IMG/VR virus record: IMGVR_UViG_3300027732_001882 | Coordinates: 1-39,345 of that record | Length of the DNA stretch: 39,345 nucleotides | Source: a virus | Taxonomy: Duplodnaviria; Caudoviricetes | Reading direction: 5' to 3' (one strand) | Part shown: positions 10,612 to 39,339 of the stretch, in pieces | Layout: every line of letters begins with the position of its first letter | Position numbering within the stretch: the stretch's first letter is position 1 | Position numbers and translations under genes: made by a program | The notes under the pieces: generated by a model | What the model was told of the DNA's origin: nothing | The model's input: the letters and a program-made list of their open reading frames with translations, nothing else | The model's database searches: none

Positions 10612-11490
10612 TTATGGCCAATTAAATCCACTGGCTTCGTCAATATCTTCAATTTTAATCACAACAGATCGAGTTGTGATGGTATTCATATAATTTTTTA
10701 ATCGTTCGCTGACCAAATCATTTCGAACCTTCTTACTTGGACTGCCAAGTACTATGATATCAAAGTCTTGATTTTTATAACTTACCAACATGTCAATGCA
10801 CCATCCAGCAGGATTGGTAAATCCTGTTTTACCAATTTTGATATCGTATTGACCGGCAAATGCATTGGTGTTATTGACCACTAACTTTTGCCACATGCCT
10901 CGCTTGTTTTGTGCGTTCGAGCTTGATGTCTTGCTCATTGCAGTTTCTTTAAAAATTGCGTATTTGATCAGCGAACGATTTAACAAATGTAAATCCCATG
11001 CAGTACTTGTGTTTAACATGAGGCCGGTTGGTTCAATGAAAGATGTGTTCTTCATTTCCAGGCGTTGCGCCGTGGCATTCATTTCTGCGATGAATAGGTC
11101 ATAACCCATTGGGTGATGCACAGCCAGTAGTTTTGCCGCAAGATTATCACTAGAGACCAGTGCAAGGTGTAATAGTTCTCTACGGGTAATTATCATACCA
11201 AGTTTAAGAACTCTGCTACCTTCTATTCGCTGAGGTATAACTGGTAATCTTTCGTCAAGGTCTACTCGGCTTTCCAGCACAACAAACGCAGTCATTAATT
11301 TTGTTACACTGGCAATTGGCATCACCCGGTGGATGTTTAATTCATCAGCAATTGTGTTGGTTGTTTTATTGAAAACTAATATTGCTTGAGCGGGTTCAGC
11401 AGGTGGTTTATTTGTTTTCTTTTTTGCCTGGGCAGGCATTGAACACATTACAACAATAAGTGGCCCGGCCAGCAGGAATCGAACCCACAT
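10612..11490 (-). CDS. peptidase S11 (D-alanyl-D-alanine endo/carboxypeptidase, PBP7/PbpG-like)
   Basis: ASVTKLMT (SxxK), SDN and KTGFT motifs; signal-like N-terminus from ATG 11490. Confidence 0.88.
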   Translation of the reverse strand: MWVRFLLAGPLIVVMCSMPAQAKKKTNKPPAEPAQAILVFNKTTNTIADELNIHRVMPIASVTKLMTAFVVLESRVDLDERLPVIPQRIEGSRVLKLGMIITRRELLHLALVSSDNLAAKLLAVHHPMGYDLFIAEMNATAQRLEMKNTSFIEPTGLMLNTSTAWDLHLLNRSLIKYAIFKETAMSKTSSSNAQNKRGMWQKLVVNNTNAFAGQYDIKIGKTGFTNPAGWCIDMLVSYKNQDFDIIVLGSPSKKVRNDLVSERLKNYMNTITTRSVVIKIEDIDEASGFNWP

Positions 11491-11535
11491 TCTAGAGGTA
11501 GAAGCTCTATGTACTATCCATTGTACTATGGCCAG
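11461..11535 (-). tRNA. tRNA-Arg(TCT)
   Basis: Cloverleaf, anticodon arm TAGAG-CTTCTAC-CTCTA, GTTCGA T-loop, CCA. Confidence 0.85.
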
Positions 11536-11545
11536 ATGAATCAAT

Positions 11546-11761
11546 TTAAACGATCTTACCAAGGACTTGATAGATAAGTTGGTCCAACTCTTGCTGATAG
11601 TCTTTGCCGAATCTACGCTTTAAATAAATTGACTCAAGTATTTCTTTAGAATCGAGATCGCATTCGGGAGGCAAGTTACCTCTAGACTCCAATTCTTCAA
11701 TCAGGTCTTCAGTATCAAAATCACTTAGACTTACTTCAACTTCTGTATAGACTGTTGGCAT
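11546..11761 (-). CDS. hypothetical acidic protein
   Basis: 71-aa ORF with an AAGG RBS. Confidence 0.7.
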   Translation of the reverse strand: MPTVYTEVEVSLSDFDTEDLIEELESRGNLPPECDLDSKEILESIYLKRRFGKDYQQELDQLIYQVLGKIV

Positions 11762-11778
11762 GTTTGACCTTTAAATTG

Positions 11779-11862
11779 TGGTGCCCCAGGTCGGACTCGA
11801 ACCGACACGCCTTTCGGCACTGGCTTCTAAGACCAGCGTGGCTACCATTACACCACCGGGGC
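11779..11862 (-). tRNA. tRNA-Leu(TAG)
   Basis: Cloverleaf with long V-arm, loop CTTAGAA, CCA. Confidence 0.93.
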
Positions 11863-11872
11863 AAAAAAAACT

Positions 11873-12037
11873 TTACTTACGCTGTCCTTCTTTTGGCTCT
11901 CTCTTGACAACTACACCAGCGGCCAACTCTGCTTGAATCATTGCGGCCTTCCAAGCATTGCGCTTGGTTGTATCAACAATGCTACACAGCATACGCTTGG
12001 TTGTTTTACTTAATCGAAATGTTTTACCTGGCTTCAT
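11873..12037 (-). CDS. 54-aa basic protein
   Basis: MKPGKTFRLSKTTKRMLCSIVDTTKRNAWKAAMIQAELAAGVVVKREPKEGQRK*. Confidence 0.6.
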   Translation of the reverse strand: MKPGKTFRLSKTTKRMLCSIVDTTKRNAWKAAMIQAELAAGVVVKREPKEGQRK

Positions 12038-12059
12038 ACTATACTTTCGTTGTTGTGTT

Positions 12060-12149
12060 TGGCGGAACGACTCGGACTCGAACCGAGAACCCGGATTACG
12101 CCGAGCGACAGATTAGCAATCTGCTCTAATACCATTATAGGACCGTTCC
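12060..12149 (-). tRNA. tRNA-Ser(GCT)
   Basis: Long V-arm, loop TTGCTAA, G73, CCA. Confidence 0.93.
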
Positions 12150-12222
12150 AAATTTTTACTTTGTAAAATTTATTATAAGCTATTTAAGCCGCTGTTGTCA
12201 ATGATTTGTTGATAAATATTCC

Positions 12223-12780
12223 ATGGAATTGTATAAAAACTTTGACCTATCATATGGACCATTGTCTTCAACTGGGTTGCGATTATTAAAAAAAATTAGG
12301 TCCAGGAATGTATACAGTAGATATACCATTGACAGTGCCAGGCATGTTGATCACAATGTGATCGGTTTCTTTGCAGAAAGAGGTTTGCGGATTCGGGGTT
12401 GCGAACTTTTTTACTACCCAACCAATTTTACTTCGATGATTCATACTGACGGTGCTGATGTAGATTACATGATGCCAGGAAATATGGCCAAGATTAATTA
12501 TATTTCCAACTCCAGTAGCGGTGTTCTAAACTGGTACACTCCAAAAGTAACAAAAGTGTCGCGTAAAAATACCAACTCAAACAATTATGCTAGCTTTACA
12601 GCAGATCAGGTAAATTTGCTGTACAGCAAACATCTTGGTGGATACAACATTGTACAAACTGGAATCCCACACAATGTAACAACCACAGAAGAAACTCGAT
12701 ACACAGTCTCTTTTACAGTGACTGACGCAACAAACAAGTTGCTACCTTATGAATTACTAGCATCTAAGATTTTTAAATAA
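12223..12780 (+). CDS. HxD...H cupin/Fe(II) oxygenase-like protein, antisense within tRNA cluster 1
   Basis: IHTD...KINY...PHNV...RYTVS. Confidence 0.65.
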   Translation: MELYKNFDLSYGPLSSTGLRLLKKIRSRNVYSRYTIDSARHVDHNVIGFFAERGLRIRGCELFYYPTNFTSMIHTDGADVDYMMPGNMAKINYISNSSSGVLNWYTPKVTKVSRKNTNSNNYASFTADQVNLLYSKHLGGYNIVQTGIPHNVTTTEETRYTVSFTVTDATNKLLPYELLASKIFK

Positions 12781-12790
12781 CAAACTACAA

Positions 12791-12867
12791 TGGTACCCCG
12801 GGAGAGATTCGAACTCTCAACACCCTCCTTTTGAGAGAGGTGCGTCTACCAATTGCGCCACCGGGGT
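12791..12867 (-). tRNA. tRNA-Leu(CAA), short variable loop
   Basis: CCTCT-CTCAAAA-GGAGG arm, A73, CCA, 77 nt. Confidence 0.88.
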
Positions 12868-12875
12868 ATTGACTT

Positions 12876-12950
12876 TGGTCTCACCAACAGGAATCGAACC
12901 TGTATCCGAGTCTTAGGAGGACCCTATTCTATCCATTGAACTACAGTGAG
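12876..12950 (-). tRNA. tRNA-Arg(CCT)
   Basis: Loop CTCCTAA, CCA. Confidence 0.9.
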
Positions 12951-12953
12951 CAT

Positions 12954-13045
12954 TGGCGGAAACGGTGAGATTCGAACTCACGGGAGGTTTAACCCTCCGC
13001 TAGTTTTCAAGACTAGTGCCATAAACCGGACTCGGCCACATTTCC
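12954..13045 (-). tRNA. tRNA-Ser(TGA)
   Basis: Loop CTTGAAA, long V-arm, CCA. Confidence 0.93.
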
Positions 13046-13053
13046 TTTACACT

Positions 13054-13127
13054 TGGCGGGCTCTGAGAGACTCGAACTCCCACTAACGGTTTTGGAGACC
13101 GCAGTACTGCCATTATACTAAGAACCC
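13054..13127 (-). tRNA. tRNA-Trp(CCA)
   Basis: Loop CTCCAAA, G73, CCA. Confidence 0.92.
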
Positions 13128-13268
13128 TTAAAACTCTTTCTTAAAAATTGGAATCATTATTGCCGGTATTGTTGTGCAACCTTGTTCGTTGGGCACAGAG
13201 CAAGTTTTTGGTATTGCACCACATGCACCAACTGATACAAGTACACACATTGACAATAATTTTTTCAT
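13128..13268 (-). CDS. 46-aa putative lipoprotein
   Basis: MKKLLSMCVLVSVGA-C lipobox-like signal, with two further Cys. Confidence 0.65.
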   Translation of the reverse strand: MKKLLSMCVLVSVGACGAIPKTCSVPNEQGCTTIPAIMIPIFKKEF

Positions 13269-13275
13269 GATATCC

Positions 13276-13352
13276 TGGTAGCCTCACTCTGACTCGAACA
13301 GAGGACCTATGCGTTATCAACACATTGCTCTAACCAACTGAGCTATGAGGCT
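13276..13352 (-). tRNA. tRNA-Ile(GAT)
   Basis: Loop TTGATAA, CCA. Confidence 0.92.
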
Positions 13353-13372
13353 ATAAACTTACTTATAAATTT

Positions 13373-13446
13373 TGGCACGGGAACTAGGACTCGAACCTAG
13401 AACGACACAGTCAAAGTGTGTTGTGTTACCATTACACCATTCCCGA
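13373..13446 (-). tRNA. tRNA-Gln(TTG)
   Basis: Loop CTTTGAC, G73, CCA. Confidence 0.92.
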
Positions 13447-13454
13447 ACAGAAAC

Positions 13455-13530
13455 TGGTACCAAGAGTTGGACTCGAACCAACCACACCCTGTGCTTCAAA
13501 CAGGTGCTCTACCAGATGAGCTATCTTGGC
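13455..13530 (-). tRNA. tRNA-Phe(GAA)
   Basis: Loop TTGAAGC, CCA. Confidence 0.9.
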
Positions 13531-13544
13531 ATAAACTTATTAGG

Positions 13545-13615
13545 GGTGACCTACGGGGGTTGAACCCGTACTAACAGAATCACAATCTGTGGTGCTACCG
13601 CTACACTAAGGTCAC
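13545..13615 (-). tRNA. tRNA-His(GTG), no encoded G-1 or CCA
   Basis: Loop TTGTGAT, C73 followed by CCT. Confidence 0.88.
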
Positions 13616-13629
13616 ACCTAATAAGTCTT

Positions 13630-13703
13630 TGGTAGGGGTGCTCGGGAACGATCCGAGTTTTACTGGTTAAAAGCCAGTTACTTCACCTTAAAGTTTCACC
13701 CCC
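13630..13703 (-). tRNA. tRNA-Lys(TTT), atypical T-loop
   Basis: ACTGG-CTTTTAA-CCAGT arm, T-loop ATCGTTC, CCA. Confidence 0.85.
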
Positions 13704-13820
13704 ATTAATTTCTCTCTTTTGCGCTTGTCGTTCTGATTTCCAGAACACACGCTTCCATTCCTTAAGGTGTTTCCACCATTGTGGTGAACGAGTTAACGTC
13801 CCTTTCTTGACACTGGCCAT
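13683..13820 (-). CDS. 45-aa basic Trp-rich protein; 3' end overlaps tRNA-Lys
   Basis: AAGGAG RBS. MASVKKGTLTRSPQWWKHLKEWKRVFWKSERQAQKREINGGETLR*. Confidence 0.65.
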   Translation of the reverse strand: MASVKKGTLTRSPQWWKHLKEWKRVFWKSERQAQKREINGGETLR

Positions 13821-13840
13821 AACAGGCTCTCCTTTAAAAT

Positions 13841-13915
13841 TGGTGGTAATGGTAAGAATCGAACTTACACTGGACTGCGTATGAAGCAGGCGCACTACCG
13901 TTATGCTACATTACC
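13841..13915 (-). tRNA. tRNA-Met(CAT), elongator-like
   Basis: Loop TTCATAC, paired G1-C72, CCA. Confidence 0.82.
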
Positions 13916-13916
13916 T

Positions 13917-13994
13917 TGGAGTACGGAGTGAGATTTGAACTCACGACTTTACTGGTTTGCAATCAGTTCCCTTGGACCTCTCGGGCATCCGTAC
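13917..13994 (-). tRNA. tRNA-Cys(GCA)
   Basis: Loop TTGCAAA, U73, CCA. Confidence 0.92.
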
Positions 13995-14000
13995 ACAAAT

Positions 14001-14075
14001 TGGCGCCCTGTGATGGAATCGAACCACCATCCTGAGTTTCGAAGACTCTAATTCTATCCATTGAACTAACAGGGC
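14001..14075 (-). tRNA. tRNA-Arg(TCG)
   Basis: Loop CTTCGAA, CCA. Confidence 0.9.
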
Positions 14076-14080
14076 ATGAT

Positions 14081-14155
14081 TGGTGGGCCAGTCTGGAATT
14101 GAACCAGAACTCAACCGATTATGAGTCGGACGCTTTACCATTAAGCTACTGGCCC
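14081..14155 (-). tRNA. tRNA(CAT), probable Ile2 (lysidine-type)
   Basis: CCGA-CTCATAA-TCGG arm and GGGCC acceptor resemble bacterial ileX. Confidence 0.8.
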
Positions 14156-14163
14156 ATTGAAAT

Positions 14164-14248
14164 TGGTGGAGTATCCTGGGATCGAACCAGGCGTGCCCGA
14201 AGGCGGCGGATTTACAGTCCACTGCATCACCATTGATGCTTCTACTCC
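14164..14248 (-). tRNA. tRNA-Tyr(GTA)
   Basis: Loop CTGTAAA, long V-arm, CCA. Confidence 0.92.
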
Positions 14249-14256
14249 ATGTAGAA

Positions 14257-14285
14257 ATTATAACACACTGACACGCAAATGTCAA
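14257..14285 (-). promoter_or_regulatory. consensus sigma70 promoter directly upstream of tRNA-Tyr
   Basis: TTGACA-N17-TATAAT. Confidence 0.85.
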
Positions 14286-14290
14286 TGTGT

Positions 14291-14358
14291 GTATTAAAGC
14301 ATACTCGGCTTGTGGCCTTGTCCCCTAAACATTCTAGTTTTGGAATATGCTTTAATAC
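14291..14358 (-). ncRNA. candidate stem-closed small RNA A
   Basis: GTATTAAAGCATATT...AGTATGCTTTAATAC terminal stem. Confidence 0.5.
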
Positions 14359-14370
14359 GATCTAATTTTT

Positions 14371-14450
14371 CCTCCCACACAAGGGATTCCATCCTAGTCG
14401 CCGCCCATTTGCCCATGTTTAGAGTGCGGGCTAGGATCTCGTTTCCTACT
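14371..14450 (-). ncRNA. candidate structured RNA directly after terminator 1
   Basis: ATCCTAG/CTAGGAT stem enclosing a GCCCG/TGGGC hairpin; GC-rich and non-coding. Confidence 0.4.
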
Positions 14451-14455
14451 ACACT

Positions 14456-14493
14456 AAAAGAAAAACCCCTGGAGCCTTTCGAGTCCAGGGGTT
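14456..14493 (-). terminator. intrinsic terminator of attenuator 1
   Basis: AACCCCTGGA/TCCAGGGGTT stem followed by TTTCTTTT. Confidence 0.85.
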
Positions 14494-14513
14494 AAGTAAA
14501 CGGTCTGATTACT

Positions 14514-14633
14514 TTATCCTGGACATGCTCCTAGAATATGGCGAACACGATAGCTCATACTAAAGGAGTCACAGAATGACATGCTCTGTTTTGAGCACCA
14601 CTGCGATAGTCTTGATATGAATGTGTTCGTCAT
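14514..14633 (-). CDS. 39-aa leader peptide of tRNA cluster 1
   Basis: MTNTFISRLSQWCSKQSMSFCDSFSMSYRVRHILGACPG*; ATG 7 nt after the -10 box; 3' end overlaps the antiterminator. Confidence 0.75.
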   Translation of the reverse strand: MTNTFISRLSQWCSKQSMSFCDSFSMSYRVRHILGACPG

Positions 14634-14640
14634 AGTAATC

Positions 14641-14669
14641 ATTGTACACTTACTTAGCCTCGTTGTCAA
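14641..14669 (-). promoter_or_regulatory. sigma70 promoter for leader 1
   Basis: TTGACA-N17-TACAAT. Confidence 0.8.
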
Positions 14670-14719: not shown

Positions 14720-14770
14720 AGTATAACACTCAATGCCGGCATTGTCAACCGGTGTTGTATTTTTACAACA
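14720..14770 (-). promoter_or_regulatory. upstream sigma70 promoter with palindromic operator
   Basis: TTGACA-N17-TATACT (14720-14748) and TGTTGTA-N4-TACAACA (14753-14770). Confidence 0.75.
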
Positions 14771-23878: not shown

Positions 23879-23952
23879 TGGAGCGGAATGTCAGAATCGA
23901 ACTGACGACAACAGATTGGAAATCTGTAGTTTTACCATTAAACTAATCCCGC
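23879..23952 (-). tRNA. tRNA-Gly(TCC)
   Basis: Loop TTTCCAA, U73, CCA. Confidence 0.93.
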
Positions 23953-24287
23953 ACTTTATAGAGGCCGTCTGTGACGCTTGAATTCGCGGTAGCCCTGCTC
24001 TTCATGGCCGGTCCTTCTATTGACTAGTATTGAGAAGTTTTTCGGTGTTCCACTGTAGCTACTCAAACGGCTTTTATAAAGTGTCCGGCTACTCACACCA
24101 CATGAGCCCCGGACTGAGCGGTTACTCTGTCCGTAACATTTATTCTTATGGGAAGGTGTTAAACCTCACCTAATGCGTCTCCGCCACTCCTCTACGGATG
24201 ACGGATGGCCAATGCACTACACGCCAAGCACTCTTTATGGTGACTGCCCCACCCCCTTTGTATAACGGGCAAGGGCGCCCGGGGTAC
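23952..24287 (-). ncRNA. candidate large structured RNA between tRNA-Pro and tRNA-Gly
   Basis: About 335 nt, non-coding and GC-rich; long stem closing 23952-24083; CCCCGG/CCGGGG long-range pair. Confidence 0.55.
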
Positions 24288-24288
24288 T

Positions 24289-24366
24289 TGGTCGGAGTAC
24301 TAGGATTCGAACCTAGGACCCCCGCGTCCCAAACGCGGTGCGCTAACCAGACTGCGCTACACTCCG
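24289..24366 (-). tRNA. tRNA-Pro(TGG)
   Basis: Loop TTTGGGA, CCA. Confidence 0.94.
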
Positions 24367-24371
24367 ATAAC

Positions 24372-24446
24372 TGGTTGCAGGGGATGGATTCGAACCACCG
24401 ATCTTCAGCTTATGAGACTGACGAGTTGCCACTTCTCTACCCCGCG
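24372..24446 (-). tRNA. tRNA-fMet-like (CAT)
   Basis: CGCGGGG start, C1:A72 mismatch, loop CTCATAA. Confidence 0.88.
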
Positions 24447-24465
24447 ATAACTTACTAACTTAAAT

Positions 24466-24541
24466 TGGTGCCCCCACCATGAATCGAACACGGGACAACC
24501 GCATTACAAGTGCGGTGCTCTACCAGCTGAGCTATAAGGGC
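24466..24541 (-). tRNA. tRNA-Thr(TGT)
   Basis: Loop CTTGTAA, CCA. Confidence 0.93.
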
Positions 24542-24562
24542 GTTGATCTTACTTACATTATT

Positions 24563-24638
24563 TGGTACATCGTGACGGGCTCGAACCGCCGACAGCCTGC
24601 GTGTAAAGCAGGAACTCTACCAACTGAGTTAACGATGC
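24563..24638 (-). tRNA. tRNA-Val(TAC)
   Basis: Loop TTTACAC, CCA. Confidence 0.93.
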
Positions 24639-25069
24639 AAATATTCGTAGTTTGTTGTTTCTTCATTCTCTCTAAAAATAATAGCACCGTTCTTGGTATG
24701 GAACCGCTTGGCCATTTCTGTTTTAGGACTCAGTGTAACAAACTTTGTTATACTTGGTTTATTCTCCTTGATGTAGTCAACTGCATCAAAGATTAACTGA
24801 CGGCCTGCGCCAGGTTTATAACTCCAAATTGTATAAAAAACTGCTGTGTCTGGTTCTTCACTTGAAGTAAACAAATCAGATTCTGATTCAGGAATACTGT
24901 TTTGATAACTTACACATGTGATTGCACGGACTGAGTCGTCATCATTTTTTAGTACAAAAATTTCTCTGTTGTCACCCACGCGGTCATTTGCAGGGATGTG
25001 TGGGCGTACTGGGTCTTGACTGATCAAGTCCAGTATATTTTCTCCAAGTGTTTGAATCAAGTGCAACAT
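24629..25069 (-). CDS. GNAT-fold-like conserved phage protein
   Basis: AVFYTIWSY..GAGR..FVTLSP..RFH..NGA. Confidence 0.7.
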   Translation of the reverse strand: MLHLIQTLGENILDLISQDPVRPHIPANDRVGDNREIFVLKNDDDSVRAITCVSYQNSIPESESDLFTSSEEPDTAVFYTIWSYKPGAGRQLIFDAVDYIKENKPSITKFVTLSPKTEMAKRFHTKNGAIIFRENEETTNYEYLHR

Positions 25070-25077
25070 AATCTTAC

Positions 25078-25248
25078 TTAGCCGCCTTGGTCACTGTCGG
25101 CAGGCAAATTGCCTGGAGGCTTGTCAATTTCTTTTTGGTCTTCGGCGTTGTTTGATTTTTTATCAAAAATTTTATCCCAATTGTCTGAGTAAGTTTTTGA
25201 ATCAACGCTGTAAGGCCTTGGGTTATCGCCCTTACCAGCTTCGTGCAT
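25078..25248 (-). CDS. 56-aa small protein (GKGxxPRP...NWDxIF type)
   Basis: AGGA RBS. MHEAGKGDNPRPYSVDSKTYSDNWDKIFDKK... Confidence 0.65.
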   Translation of the reverse strand: MHEAGKGDNPRPYSVDSKTYSDNWDKIFDKKSNNAEDQKEIDKPPGNLPADSDQGG

Positions 25249-25269
25249 ACTAACTTTCCTTTATAATAA

Positions 25270-25345
25270 TGGTGGAGGTGACAAGGATCGAACTTGCGAC
25301 ATCCAGCTTGCAAAGCTGGCGCTCTCCCAACTGAGCTACACCCCC
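25270..25345 (-). tRNA. tRNA-Ala(TGC)
   Basis: G3-U70, loop TTTGCAA, CCA. Confidence 0.95.
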
Positions 25346-25363
25346 AAAAATTTTATGATTTGC

Positions 25364-25451
25364 ACCATAGAAAAACACACTCAAGTCCGCGGCACGGAAG
25401 GCACTATACCCGCGATGGTCTATGACCAGGCCTAGTGTGTTTATCTATGGT
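25364..25451 (-). ncRNA. candidate stem-closed small RNA B
   Basis: 18-bp terminal stem (1 mismatch) enclosing two hairpins. Confidence 0.55.
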
Positions 25452-25452
25452 T

Positions 25453-25560
25453 AGCATATTGAAACACACTATACAACAGGTTTAGGTCTGCTTCTGTATC
25501 CTGTTACGGCCGAGTATGAAGTTATCTCTGGACCTATGCCGTAATGTGTTTTAATATGCT
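25453..25560 (-). ncRNA. candidate stem-closed small RNA C
   Basis: 18-bp terminal stem enclosing two hairpins with complementary loops. Confidence 0.55.
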
Positions 25561-25561
25561 C

Positions 25562-25755
25562 TGCGAACCTCGGTGGTAATTGTACCGTATCAAGCGCCAG
25601 GAACCCCCAACACCATCACACACGGCTTCCACCCACTTCCCGACAGGTTCCGTTAACGCATTGCCAGCGGCCTTTTGGTTCGAAGACTACCACCCGTACT
25701 TGTCACAGTACTTCTCATCGTGTGGGTCACACTATCCGACGACACTCGGAACGTC
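25562..25755 (-). ncRNA. candidate structured RNA E
   Basis: GC-rich and non-coding; CACACG/CGTGTG, GGTGGTAGT/ATTACCACC and GAACC/GGTTC pairings. Confidence 0.5.
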
Positions 25756-25831
25756 TGGTTGCGGGGGAAGGATTCGAACCTCCGTCTCCTAGGTTATGAG
25801 CCTAGTAGTCTGGCCACTGACGTACCCCGCG
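25756..25831 (-). tRNA. tRNA-fMet-like (CAT), second copy
   Basis: CGCGGGG start, C1:A72, loop CTCATAA. Confidence 0.88.
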
Positions 25832-25836
25832 ATATA

Positions 25837-26061
25837 CTATCGAACTTTTCGTATTCCTTCGTAACCTAACTTGCCATTTTGTACTTCAAGCAATGCAGTT
25901 ACTGGTGTATGAAGATGTTCTGTGCGAACACTTTCTCTATTGTTTTGACTAATTTCTCTTGCTCTGGCCGCGGCAATTAAAACCAAGTCAAATCGATTGC
26001 CTCCAACATTTTGTACACATTGATCTGTATCAATGTCAACTCCTCGACTGATGTATGTCAT
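25837..26061 (-). CDS. rpoZ: RNA polymerase omega subunit-like protein
   Basis: NRFDLVLIAAARAREI...PVTALLEV..G; start at ATG 26061. Confidence 0.85.
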   Translation of the reverse strand: MTYISRGVDIDTDQCVQNVGGNRFDLVLIAAARAREISQNNRESVRTEHLHTPVTALLEVQNGKLGYEGIRKVR

Positions 26062-26099
26062 AATTGCCTTTGTAAAAGTGAAAGAAACTAGCGTTTTCT

Positions 26100-26175
26100 T
26101 GGCTCCACCTCCTGGGCTCGAACCAGGGACCAAATGATTAACAGTCATCTACTCTACCAACTGAGCTAAGGCGGA
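26100..26175 (-). tRNA. tRNA-Asn(GTT)
   Basis: Loop CTGTTAA, G73, CCA. Confidence 0.95.
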
Positions 26176-26188
26176 AAATAATTGAATC

Positions 26189-26384
26189 TGTAAGTAGTTG
26201 CCCCATCATTATAGCAACCATTCACCCGTGTAATAAATCCGGACGGGATTCGGTAAGTTACTTGGGATACCGGTCCAGTTTAGTCGCCTCAATGGACCTA
26301 GTGGGTGTCGAACCCATGACCTTCTACTGTTTCGGTCCTTCGAAGAAACCTAGACAGCGTGACTTTCTCTTGCTAACACTTACA
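26189..26384 (-). ncRNA. candidate structured RNA F
   Basis: TGTAAGT/ACTTACA closing stem; internal T-arm-like TGGGTTCGACACCCA. Confidence 0.45.
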
Positions 26385-26389
26385 AAACT

Positions 26390-26464
26390 TGGCGGTCTGT
26401 GGGGGAATCGAACCCCCGTAAGTGGATAGACAATCCACAGTAATAACCTCTATACGAACAGACC
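26390..26464 (-). tRNA. tRNA-Asp(GTC)
   Basis: GTGGA-TTGTCTA-TCCAC, G73, CCA. Confidence 0.9.
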
Positions 26465-26471
26465 TAATTTC

Positions 26472-26556
26472 TGGTGCGACTGGCCGGAATCGAACCGGCA
26501 TGCTGTTAAGCGAGAGATTTTAAGTCTCTTGTGTCTACCGATTTCACCACAGTCGC
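26472..26556 (-). tRNA. tRNA-Leu(TAA)
   Basis: Loop CTTAAAA, long V-arm, CCA. Confidence 0.94.
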
Positions 26557-26559
26557 AAT

Positions 26560-26776
26560 ACCATATGTAAAATTACAAAGGAACTCCACTTACCTTGCAG
26601 GACCGTCTCCTGCTACTTCTGCTTCGTCATTACGCTCTAGTAAATCCTACCGTGCCATTTGGTGATGTTGCCATCCCTCAGCTTTCATGTACACTACATT
26701 GAGCCAGCCCGTCAGCTGGATATACTCAATACAGGTACCTAGCAGTACTAGTAACCTTTATAACTTTACATATGGT
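26560..26776 (-). ncRNA. candidate stem-closed RNA D
   Basis: 22-bp terminal stem ACCATATGTAAAGTTATAAAGG/CCTTTGTAATTTTACATATGGT, starting in the ACCA of tRNA-Glu. Confidence 0.55.
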
Positions 26777-26847
26777 ACTCGATAGCGGAGTCGAACCGCT
26801 CTTGCCTGGATGAAAACCAGATGTCCTAACCGATAGACGAATCGAGC
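26773..26847 (-). tRNA. tRNA-Glu(TTC)
   Basis: Loop TTTTCAT, CCA. Confidence 0.92.
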
Positions 26848-26863
26848 ACAAATGCCACCAAAT

Positions 26864-26894
26864 TTTTAAAGAACAATCACTTCAACTTTCGCTG
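26864..26894 (-). promoter_or_regulatory. rrn-like boxB-boxA antitermination signal
   Basis: CAGC-GAAA-GTTG hairpin, then TGTTCTTTAAAA (E. coli rrn boxA is TGCTCTTTAACA). Confidence 0.6.
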
Positions 26895-26906
26895 TAGTGT
26901 TTGGTT

Positions 26907-26972
26907 ATTATATACGGACAATGCCGTAATGTCAACCGTTTTCTAACTTTCTTTTGTTGTATTTCTACAACA
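26907..26972 (-). promoter_or_regulatory. consensus sigma70 promoter with palindromic operator
   Basis: TTGACA-N17-TATAAT (26907-26935); palindrome at 26955-26972. Confidence 0.8.
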
Positions 26973-27013
26973 ACTTTCAAACTGTTTCTACTGCATTGCT
27001 ACAGCATGCCACT

Positions 27014-27079
27014 AGTATATGCTATCTACTGATTCCTGTCAACAACTATCTGTCTTTATCTTGTTGTATTTCTACAACA
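27014..27079 (-). promoter_or_regulatory. sigma70 promoter with palindromic operator
   Basis: TTGACA-N17-TATACT (27014-27042); palindrome at 27062-27079. Confidence 0.8.
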
Positions 27080-27083
27080 AGCC

Positions 27084-27159
27084 TGGAGCGGGTGATCAGG
27101 TTCGAACTGACGACATCTTGCTTGGCAAGCAAGTGCTCTACCAACTGAGCTACACCCGC
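27084..27159 (-). tRNA. tRNA-Gly(GCC)
   Basis: Loop TTGCCAA, U73, CCA. Confidence 0.95.
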
Positions 27160-27161
27160 AC

Positions 27162-27195
27162 AATAAAAAAGCCCCGGAGTTTTTATTTCCAGGGC
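27162..27195 (-). terminator. intrinsic terminator of attenuator 2
   Basis: GCCCTGGA/TCCGGGGC stem plus TTTTTTATT, immediately 5' of tRNA-Gly(GCC). Confidence 0.8.
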
Positions 27196-27218
27196 CTGTA
27201 ATCTCACTATGCGTAGAG

Positions 27219-27284
27219 TTACGGCCTCGGAGTATCCTCTGTGGCTGGTCCTGTATTACCTGGTAACAATTTTGCGTTTAACAT
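27219..27284 (-). CDS. 21-aa leader peptide of tRNA cluster 2
   Basis: MLNAKLLPGNTGPATEDTPRP*; ATG 6 nt after TATAAT; stop lies inside the antiterminator. Confidence 0.75.
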   Translation of the reverse strand: MLNAKLLPGNTGPATEDTPRP

Positions 27285-27290
27285 AGTATT

Positions 27291-27319
27291 ATTATATATC
27301 CTTTTAACTTAGAAGTCTA
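27291..27319 (-). promoter_or_regulatory. sigma70 promoter for leader 2
   Basis: TAGACT-N17-TATAAT. Confidence 0.7.
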
Positions 27320-38466: not shown

Positions 38467-38494
38467 AAAAAGAAAGCACCCGAAGGTGCTTTCT
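38467..38494 (-). terminator. tmRNA terminator
   Basis: AGAAAGCACC-TTCG-GGTGCTTTCT plus T-run. Confidence 0.85.
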
Positions 38495-38775
38495 GGTATT
38501 TTCTGTTACGAGGTATTTCCTACCCTAAGTGGCTGTTAGGCCGCTAATGCGAACTGTGAGTCGTTTGCGGTTACTTTTGTTTAGTTTTTACGACTATCGC
38601 TGTCGTGCTGTCCACTCTGTTACTTGTTGCCCTGTCGAATCTAGGTCAGGCCCATCAAAAACATACTCTGTTAAATTTCACCTCTCCGCGTGTGAGGTCG
38701 AATATGTTTGTGGTGGACCTGGGGGGATTCGCACCCCCGTCCAGAACACTTTTCTCTTTGCTTCATACAGCAATA
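38495..38775 (-). ncRNA. ssrA: circularly permuted (two-piece) tmRNA, tag ANDSQFALAA
   Basis: The piece ending in T-arm and CCA (about 38775-38711) precedes the piece starting GGGCCTGA...ATTCGAC (from 38653); G3-U70; tag ORF at 38536-38568. Confidence 0.92.
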
Positions 38776-38781
38776 ACTTGT

Positions 38782-38810
38782 ATTATAGCACTAGTCTATA
38801 ATTTTGTCAA
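38782..38810 (-). promoter_or_regulatory. consensus sigma70 promoter of tmRNA
   Basis: TTGACA-N17-TATAAT. Confidence 0.85.
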
Positions 38811-38811
38811 A

Positions 38812-39339
38812 TCAATTTGAACCTGTGTCGGTTCCTTTACGGCCATCGCGGCCCATGGCACCTACCATACCTTTGTCAGTACTAAAGAAGGTATCAGCAA
38901 ATATCAATAGAAACATGCCAACTGAACCTAGCCACCAACCAAGAATACCGCCGGGGCCGGCCCCTGCCATTGTGGCAATCCCAGCAGCTGGAATTACTGA
39001 ATATAACAGTTGAATCAGTTTGCCTTGCCAGTTACCTGCAAGTCCCCAGGCCTCTGCTAGTTGTCCTTGTGGTTCTTGTCCAACTTTGTTTTTTAGTATT
39101 TCTTCAAATCCCAATGCTTTAGCAACTTTGATTGCATTTTCTCTGCTGGGTGTAAAATCTCCACCAGTTGCTTGTTTAACTTGTTGTGCAATTTGAGCGA
39201 CAGTATCACCACCAAACAGCTTCATTGCTTTTGGTACCATGGACTTCAATGAGTCCATAATGCCCTCGTCGAGTTGGGTGTTTGCCTGACTATTTTCATT
39301 GATTATATCAATGTATTTGCGAAAATGTTGTGTGCTCAT
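38812..39339 (-). CDS. hypothetical protein with C-terminal hydrophobic segments
   Basis: 175-aa ORF. Confidence 0.7.
   Translation of the reverse strand: MSTQHFRKYIDIINENSQANTQLDEGIMDSLKSMVPKAMKLFGGDTVAQIAQQVKQATGGDFTPSRENAIKVAKALGFEEILKNKVGQEPQGQLAEAWGLAGNWQGKLIQLLYSVIPAAGIATMAGAGPGGILGWWLGSVGMFLLIFADTFFSTDKGMVGAMGRDGRKGTDTGSN

Follow-up and report, generated by a model that had tools for sequence, protein, structure and literature searches.

Results

Genes and features at the first tRNA cluster

The window (the whole stretch of 39,345 nucleotides that was analyzed) is a fragment of a freshwater phage and carries 29 tRNA genes in two clusters, both on the minus strand. The following features were found at the first cluster.

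14720-14748 (-), upstream sigma-70-type promoter TTGACA-17-TATACT with extended -10; a consensus match only, which would also feed leader 1
14641-14669 (-), leader-1 promoter TTGACA-17-TACAAT; predicted start at or beside the ATG (leaderless)
14514-14633 (-), leader ORF 1, 39 codons, rich in cluster-1 amino acids (C, F, H, I, K, L, M, Q, R, S, W, Y)
14483-14524 (-), predicted antiterminator 1, outer GUCCAGG:CCUGGAC around inner AAGUAA:UUACUU; duplex -15.6, z -2.4, p 0.025
14456-14491 (-), intrinsic terminator 1, CCCCUGGA..UCCAGGGG plus U-run; stem 14491-14466, T-run to 14456
14358-14455 (-), conserved structured RNA motif just past terminator 1; long-range pair kept in 77/77 (59 G-C, 18 A-U)
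14291-14358 (-), RNA cassette closed by a long stem
14257-14285 (-), 12/12 consensus promoter (consensus match) within a palindrome, directly before tRNA-Tyr
11461-14248 (-), tRNA cluster 1, 17 tRNAs

The elements that the original prediction had named here were confirmed. The promoter consists of TTGACA (14669-14664), a 17-nt spacer and TACAAT (14646-14641); the ATG lies at 14633, 7 nt after the -10 hexamer, and opens a 39-codon ORF with a TAA stop at 14516-14514. The terminator (stem 14491-14466, T-run to 14456) follows, ahead of the tRNA cluster. Sixteen tRNAs were found in the first tRNA search and tRNA-Tyr (14248-14167) in further searches, which gives the 17 that had been claimed. Their order is Tyr, CAT (Ile2-like), Arg-TCG, Cys, CAT (Met), Lys, His, Phe, Gln, Ile, Trp, Ser-TGA, Arg-CCT, Leu-CAA, Ser-GCT, Leu-TAG and Arg-TCT. 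One CAT tRNA is presumably Ile2, judging by TilS determinants. The CAT-anticodon tRNA at 13915-13841 (-) has an unusual anticodon loop, with U32 and C38. Upstream, a 38-codon ORF at 14879-14763 (-) has a start resembling the N-terminus of a glycine-rich protein (16551-15532) and is probably a remnant duplicate.

All 12 amino acids of cluster 1 are present in leader ORF 1, as had been predicted. The ORF holds 19 of the 20 amino acids in total, Glu alone being absent, and its cluster-2 residues lie mostly at its two ends. The prediction that 28 of the 30 codons from 5 to 34 encode amino acids served by the cluster is correct as a count, but that stretch was picked post hoc. Over the 38 codons after Met1, 29 encode cluster-1 amino acids (binomial P = 0.0013 against phage codon usage; 664 of 20,000 nucleotide shuffles) and 26 are read by cluster-1 anticodons with wobble (323 of 20,000 shuffles). 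The match is thus better than in shuffled ORFs at the amino acid and wobble levels, but not at the level of exact anticodons (16/38; 1621 of 20,000 shuffles, not significant). Codons for Leu-CAA (TTG), Arg-CCT (AGG) and Arg-TCG (CGA/CGG) are absent from leader ORF 1. Taken alone, the leader-1 codon match is modest (P about 0.001-0.04) and at most suggestive. The leader-1 frame is preserved in the close relative L002, in which two codons differ.

A complementary unit precedes the second cluster

The second cluster is preceded by a unit of the same layout.

27291-27319 (-), leader-2 promoter TAGACT-17-TATAAT; ATG 6 nt downstream
27219-27284 (-), leader ORF 2, 21 codons (MLNAKLLPGNTGPATEDTPRP); 18/20 residues served by cluster 2
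27188-27231 (-), predicted antiterminator 2, which runs across the stop codon and pairs with 7 nt of the terminator 5' arm; z -2.4, p 0.03
27165-27196 (-), intrinsic terminator 2, directly before tRNA-Gly-GCC
23879-27159 (-), tRNA cluster 2; internal promoters at 27042 and 26935

Cluster 2 is ordered Gly-GCC, Glu, Leu-TAA, Asp, Asn, CAT, Ala, Val, Thr, CAT, Pro and Gly-TCC. Only 7 of 20,000 shuffles placed as many residues in the cluster-2 set as the 18 of 20 in leader 2. For amino acids exclusive to one cluster, cluster-1 and cluster-2 residues stand at 25:9 in leader 1 and 2:15 in leader 2 (Fisher P = 5e-5). Leu codons follow the anticodon split, with CTA, CTA before Leu-TAG and TTA, TTG, TTA before Leu-TAA. 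A variant of leader 2 in the relative L173 replaces Ala4 with Val, the cluster-2 residue absent from the window copy. In the window units the stop codon lies 22-23 nt from the terminator. A C1:A72 mismatch like that of initiators is present in both CAT tRNAs of cluster 2, and leader 2 contains no Met after its start codon. An ORF resembling the omega subunit of RNA polymerase (26061-25837 (-); PF01192, E 9e-10) lies inside cluster 2, and omega-like (RpoZ-like) ORFs also occur within the tRNA arrays of many relatives.

The phage and its relatives

Contigs related to the window extend to 345-364 kb. A T4-type Gp23 capsid gene was found in three of the five related contigs tested, and in 3/3 among near-complete records; the relatives carrying leader units appear to be dozens of T4-like jumbo phages. 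No cultured close relative was found when the leader region, the RNA motif and one large protein were compared by BLAST with 50,697 GenBank phages; the matches were confined to tRNAs, short chance similarities and distantly related proteases. The host is probably betaproteobacterial, because the window carries a tmRNA of that type.

38469-38824 (-), permuted two-piece tmRNA, betaproteobacterial type; consensus promoter at 38810; tag ANDSQFALAA

Elsewhere in the window are a QueC-like gene (19846-18914) and two genes that probably encode cell-wall enzymes, one with a serine beta-lactamase fold (PF00144; 7306-6149 (-)) and one for a D-Ala-D-Ala carboxypeptidase (PF00768; 11457-10612 (-)).

Leader composition in related phages

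A neighboring ORF used as query yielded 47 loci. The RNA motif that follows the terminator, chosen as query blind to the leader, yielded 120 further loci, of which 77 have a tRNA within 1 kb and 40 are short. In loci with at least five tRNAs, 83 of 94 terminators ahead of tRNAs have an ORF of 20-62 codons ending 20-36 nt upstream, under a length and gap rule that was fixed after the first loci had been inspected. The L034 unit, which is cut by the locus edge, was left out of the statistics. The units are not fully independent, as all come from one related phage group.

All 20 amino acids are present in 20 of 45 leader clusters (60% peptide identity), where protein windows predict 0.8 and shuffles 1.3; clustering at 45% identity gives 15/36 against 0.6-0.9 expected. 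The commonest form in the group is a checklist of all 20 amino acids, with the cluster-specific mirror as a specialized form. The original prediction had proposed comparing the leaders of relatives, and in split arrays ORF composition does track the downstream tRNAs. When tRNA sets were permuted among 17 closed partial arrays, the tracking score was 0.171 versus 0.000 ± 0.025 (P = 1e-5), with seven of the 17 scoring below 0.1. In L044, one leader draws its first 20 residues exclusively from Y, I, W, R, C, Q, M, K, H and F, and the other leader lacks C, H, I, Q, W and Y (P = 9e-5). The sub-array that serves Ser is not the same one in L044 as in the window, and leader composition changes accordingly. 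A Ser/Leu-rich leader precedes Ser/Leu tRNAs in L094, although one of the three L094 pairs is not significant without trimming. Tracking between leader and sub-array is significant in L079 and L106 and not significant in L086 (P = 0.2-0.29). A sub-array leader of G004, a relative of L044, was fetched afterwards; of its 29 residues, 24 belong to the set of its own tRNAs, one is a Val whose tRNA is uncertain and four fall outside the set, and none is C, H, I, K, Q, W or Y.

A held-out set consisted of 36 loci found through the RpoZ-like gene. Four of these repeat window unit 2 (one with the Ala-to-Val change) and one repeats L100. Six units are new and represent five distinct peptides, each of which contains all 20 amino acids. 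Most of the remaining held-out loci begin inside an array or have few tRNAs, and one locus (L179) has no unit. The leader mirror of the tRNA set is inexact, and in G006, a 98%-complete genome, a leader with all 20 amino acids is found yet no Lys, Val or Ile-GAT tRNA was called. Nor is the design universal, because neither the tRNA regions retrieved for Limnohabitans phage DC31 and phage XacN1 nor the sequence before a 3-tRNA cluster of G004 yielded a unit.

Cys is present in every member of a 15-member leader family, at several different positions. Because the peptide is poorly conserved and Cys is constant but mobile, selection appears to act on composition. A conserved peptide function was rejected, as the synonymous bias in leaders is mild (67 synonymous and 122 non-synonymous changes, with about 46 synonymous expected). 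Profile searches gave no Pfam family for the leader peptides and no Rfam family for the leader region. The leaders cover 266 isoacceptor boxes, compared with 244 ± 5 after synonymous resampling, and their preference for codons of the unit's own tRNAs is weak (317/449 versus 298, P = 0.03). The 45 leader representatives are biased towards wobble-read codons (TAT 47/50, GAT 31/41, CAT 33/47, GAG 30/42), a bias that may raise sensitivity or report queuosine status. In L003 (8318-8435) and L005 (8315-8432), a leaderless 11-codon ORF overlaps, in another frame, a 31-codon ORF ending before the terminator; this split leader is possibly a frameshift or coupling variant.

A predicted antiterminator spans the stop codon

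In the original prediction, the end of leader ORF 1 pairs with the terminator 5' arm and its flank through GTCCAGG (14524-14518) with CCTGGAC (14489-14483) and AAGTAA (14514-14509) with TTACTT (14499-14494), forming an antiterminator exclusive of the terminator. The coordinates of both pairings are right, but only GUCCAGG:CCUGGAC excludes the terminator; the AAGUAA:UUACUU helix is present in both folding states. When transcripts were cut at the terminator 5' arm, a hairpin spanning the stop codon took 2-10 nt of the arm in 45/45 representatives. The antiterminator duplex was stronger than in dinucleotide shuffles at p <= 0.05 in 38 of the 45, among them the two units of the window (p 0.025 and 0.03). 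On swapping partners, own partners averaged -20.0 kcal/mol versus -14.1 kcal/mol for others (P = 5e-5), and the own partner ranked first of 45 for leader 2 and sixth of 45 for leader 1. As a control we used 91 other terminators in the same loci, 23 of which have an ORF ending at the same distance. Three of these 23 passed; they belong to L055 (counted twice) and L096 and are themselves leaders, with the first tRNA more than 1.5 kb away. Once they are set aside, 0/20 ordinary terminators passed.

The ribosome was represented in truncated folds by a footprint of 12 nt past the A site. The terminator arm was sequestered in 2/45 units with a ribosome at the stop codon and in 45/45 without a ribosome, a statistic that shows polarity and not specificity, since arm sequestration averages 0.55 in shuffled regions; arm-pairing probability alone was dropped as a statistic for this reason. 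The leader-1 antiterminator persists as long as the A site is at least 6 codons from the stop and disappears at 4 codons. The two states that had been proposed are recovered in part: truncated, co-transcription-like folds switch, but equilibrium folding with a moving footprint gives no clean switch. Full-length equilibrium folds mostly favor the terminator whatever the ribosome position, so switching would have to be kinetic. The polarity originally proposed, in which a ribosome at the end favors termination and a lagging one favors readthrough, fits the computed folds. The stop codon lies 22-36 nt before the terminator arm in 45/45 representatives. No protector (1:2) hairpin is dominant, the one weak candidate appearing in full-length leader-1 folds only. 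Rfam covariance models, including T-box, gave no hit at gathering score; the best was His_leader (17 bits against a cut-off of 49, E 2.8).

Promoters, RNA elements and RNA-library coverage

The original prediction carried the caveat of a consensus promoter downstream of the terminator, and the 12/12 match at 14285-14257 is real as sequence; it is likely a bypass of attenuator 1. The close relative L002 has no promoter match at the equivalent site. Of 44 units, 10 have a strong promoter between the terminator and the first tRNA and 34 do not; a strong promoter lies inside the tRNA array in 29/44, and within 260 nt upstream of the leader in 33/44. The spacing from -10 to ATG is 5-7 nt in 15 cases among related units. 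Because promoters lie below terminators and inside arrays, gating is probably partial for many tRNAs. The promoters at 14748-14720 and 26935-26907 (-) share a near-identical palindromic spacer after TTGACA. A repeated palindrome (TTGTTGTAGAAATACAACAA type) lies beside promoters at about 27080, 26970 and 14770 (-), and also in L010 and the G004 region; it is a candidate operator for a phage regulator. Internal tRNA promoters are followed by words that we take to be boxA-like, as in rRNA antitermination, at about 26875 (-) in the window and in L023 and L044.

In the RNA motif past terminator 1, the short stem and the long-range pair covary in all 77 tRNA-linked instances. About 430 stretches in IMG/VR match the motif pattern, some by chance. 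The motif at 14455-14358 has no Rfam match, and RNAalifold on the motif alignment yielded little. An upstream GTG and a loop CAC may form a pseudoknot. Hammerhead and hairpin ribozymes were considered and dropped, as the pairing pattern does not fit their cores. Antitermination or processing is a possible role for the motif. Long A/U-rich stems close RNA cassettes at 14358-14291 and, between tRNAs, at 26770-26562 and 25551-25453 (-). The insides of the cassettes vary in relatives, and the stems are possibly processing stems.

Part of the region is present in 20 freshwater metatranscriptome runs, three of which contain half or more of its words, and runs X10-X20 contain small shares. Contigs of these RNA libraries carry no strand, ends or level and may include DNA. 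Leader 1 is covered in 4/4 runs examined, with a DNA origin possible. Terminator 1 is bridged by contigs of runs X1 and X4, and terminator 2 by contigs of X1 and X5. One X3 contig (14457-14667) ends at the T-run of terminator 1, and X2 and X3 contigs stop at 27158, the 5' end of tRNA-Gly. In an X2 variant the leader-1 -10 element becomes TATAAT, equal to the consensus, and no change is listed inside leader ORF 1 in the contigs of the four runs. Positions 14252-14282 are without RNA contig, a hole that proves nothing.

Discussion

We hypothesize, with a probability of roughly 0.8, that these units are multivalent, ribosome-coupled attenuators of phage tRNA arrays that raise tRNA supply when decoding slows. 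For unit 1, the attenuator reading of the original prediction gains support from the complementary unit 2, from 83 related units with array tracking, and from a predicted antiterminator that is absent from control terminators. The promoter, the ORF, the stop codon 22-23 nt before the terminator and the cluster-matched composition are seen in the sequence. Host ribosomes would initiate on the leaderless ORF, coupled to sigma-70 polymerase. A ribosome moving through the checklist without delay would cover the hairpin strand near the stop codon, and transcription would terminate. A ribosome stalled for want of a tRNA would instead free the predicted antiterminator, which joins the last codons to the terminator 5' arm and is computed to form with the A site at least 6 codons from the stop and to be lost within 4, and the tRNA genes would be transcribed. 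New tRNAs would then restore decoding of the checklist and close the switch, a negative feedback. With the antiterminator strand placed at the ORF end and no dominant protector, the switch would be opened by a stall at any earlier codon, which would allow one leader to sample many tRNAs. At cluster 1, the switch would add to the output of the promoter at 14285. The input is probably loss of functional tRNA, by cleavage or by depletion in infection, and not amino-acid shortage: with one or two codons for each tRNA, opening the switch would take long stalls, which suit tRNA loss better than partial uncharging, and starvation would not be cured by extra tRNA. A general translation block is also predicted to open the switch, because the untranslated leader folds to the antiterminator.

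By analogy with phage tRNAs that counter host defenses, anticodon nucleases are a plausible trigger. An extension of this idea, which we advance tentatively and rate at somewhat less than an even chance, is that the unit is a pan-tRNA alarm. The checklist, with one codon for each tRNA and rewritten when the array splits or reshuffles, would detect loss of any host tRNA to anti-phage anticodon nucleases and release the matching tRNAs, with the RNA motif acting as a processive antitermination or processing element.

The leader could alternatively report general translation trouble or starvation (uncharged tRNA), with the array serving as a general stress response like that of the Anabaena trn operon, which the available text of its description reports to be induced by ribosome-targeting antibiotics (PMC8421152). 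Such a response would suit the untranslated leader, which folds to the antiterminator in 45/45 units, as well as the preference for wobble-read codons (TAT 47/50, GAT 31/41) and the finding that leaders with all 20 amino acids precede arrays missing several tRNA types. We consider it unlikely: a general sensor needs no particular composition, yet the leaders of split arrays match their own tRNAs, and amino-acid shortage would not be relieved by more tRNA.

Less probable still is that the ORF forms a separate gene for a small protein or small RNA, with its own constitutive terminator, the tRNAs being made from promoters below. The perfect promoter at 14285, the internal promoters at 27042 and 26935, the dominance of the terminator in equilibrium folds and the X3 contig 14457-14667, which ends at the T-run, would all fit such a gene. 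The peptides, however, have no Pfam match and diverge freely, while composition is kept and follows the neighboring tRNAs; the conserved antiterminator is not seen at ordinary terminators, and 34/44 units are without a strong promoter between terminator and first tRNA. An attenuator of opposite polarity can also be envisaged. In attenuation of the pyrBI type a closely coupled ribosome prevents termination, so that the tRNAs would be made when translation is good. The ORF does end near a terminator, but the stop codon lies 22-36 nt before the arm in 45/45, beyond the footprint of a terminating ribosome, which in the folds would cover the antiterminator strand instead; we regard this polarity as the least credible of the possibilities considered.

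It has long been asked why phages carry tRNA genes, and the attenuator proposed here implies supply on demand. With a checklist ORF and a terminator with a predicted on/off fold before each cluster, the phage likely makes extra tRNAs when ribosomes run short. Attenuation would be extended to tRNA genes and a direct product-feedback loop closed. Ideas of tRNA depletion and anti-defense become testable with a 180-nt reporter insert, and the leader unit could serve as a compact biosensor for tRNA-cleaving defense systems. If the alarm reading is true, the checklist is a readable record of the tRNAs attacked by host defenses.

A full-text literature search found no attenuator of tRNA genes; subscription papers were mostly beyond its reach, and an earlier description is possible. 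Term look-ups in the available text of PMC11555353, PMC13015707, PMC8421152 and PMC10221431 found no such control described. The tRNA-Tyr of T5/SP15 counters retron-Eco7, with rescue depending on tRNA promoter strength (PMC11555353), and a phage tRNA counters PARIS (PMC11464382), as far as the accessible portions of these articles report. In these anti-defense systems tRNA supply likewise offsets tRNA loss; a strong promoter is described and no sensor, and the available text makes no mention of attenuation or a leader (PMC11555353). The nearest functional analogue appears to be the Anabaena trn operon, a long tRNA array that is on under translational stress (PMC8421152, whose available text makes no mention of attenuation or a leader peptide). 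Its control is described, in the part available, as lying at the promoter and exerted by a repressor (TrcR, PMC10272220). Mycobacterial leaderless poly-Cys short ORFs are reported as ribosome-stalling sensors in the accessible text (bioRxiv 10.1101/834739). The phage leaders resemble them as leaderless short ORFs with a putative stalling function, whereas the mycobacterial ORFs, as described there, carry a tract of one amino acid and control a ribosome-binding site, not a terminator, in host genes.

Ribosome-mediated attenuators of amino-acid operons include trp, his, leu, thr, ilvGMEDA, ilvBN, as well as pheA, and a synchronizing polymerase pause is called a requirement for high attenuator sensitivity in the available text (PMC1183508). 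Like the trp/his class, the phage units have a short leader ORF whose start signal lies at the transcript's 5' end, control codons related to what the downstream operon produces, an intrinsic terminator before that operon, and a computed antiterminator that overlaps the end of the ORF and alternates with the terminator, with termination predicted when the ribosome keeps pace. Unlike amino-acid operon attenuators, they precede tRNA genes and not genes of biosynthetic enzymes. They sample 10-20 amino acids once or twice each, with scattered codons in place of a tandem run of one, they appear often to be leaderless, and they lack a dominant 1:2 protector hairpin, so that an untranslated phage leader is predicted to read through. 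We do not place them in the trp/his class, because tandem control codons and a protector hairpin are both missing. In the E. coli pheST attenuator with its pheM leader, decoding speed controls part of the translation machinery; there the sensed amino acid is one and the product a synthetase, and in the phage units the whole tRNA set would be under such control.
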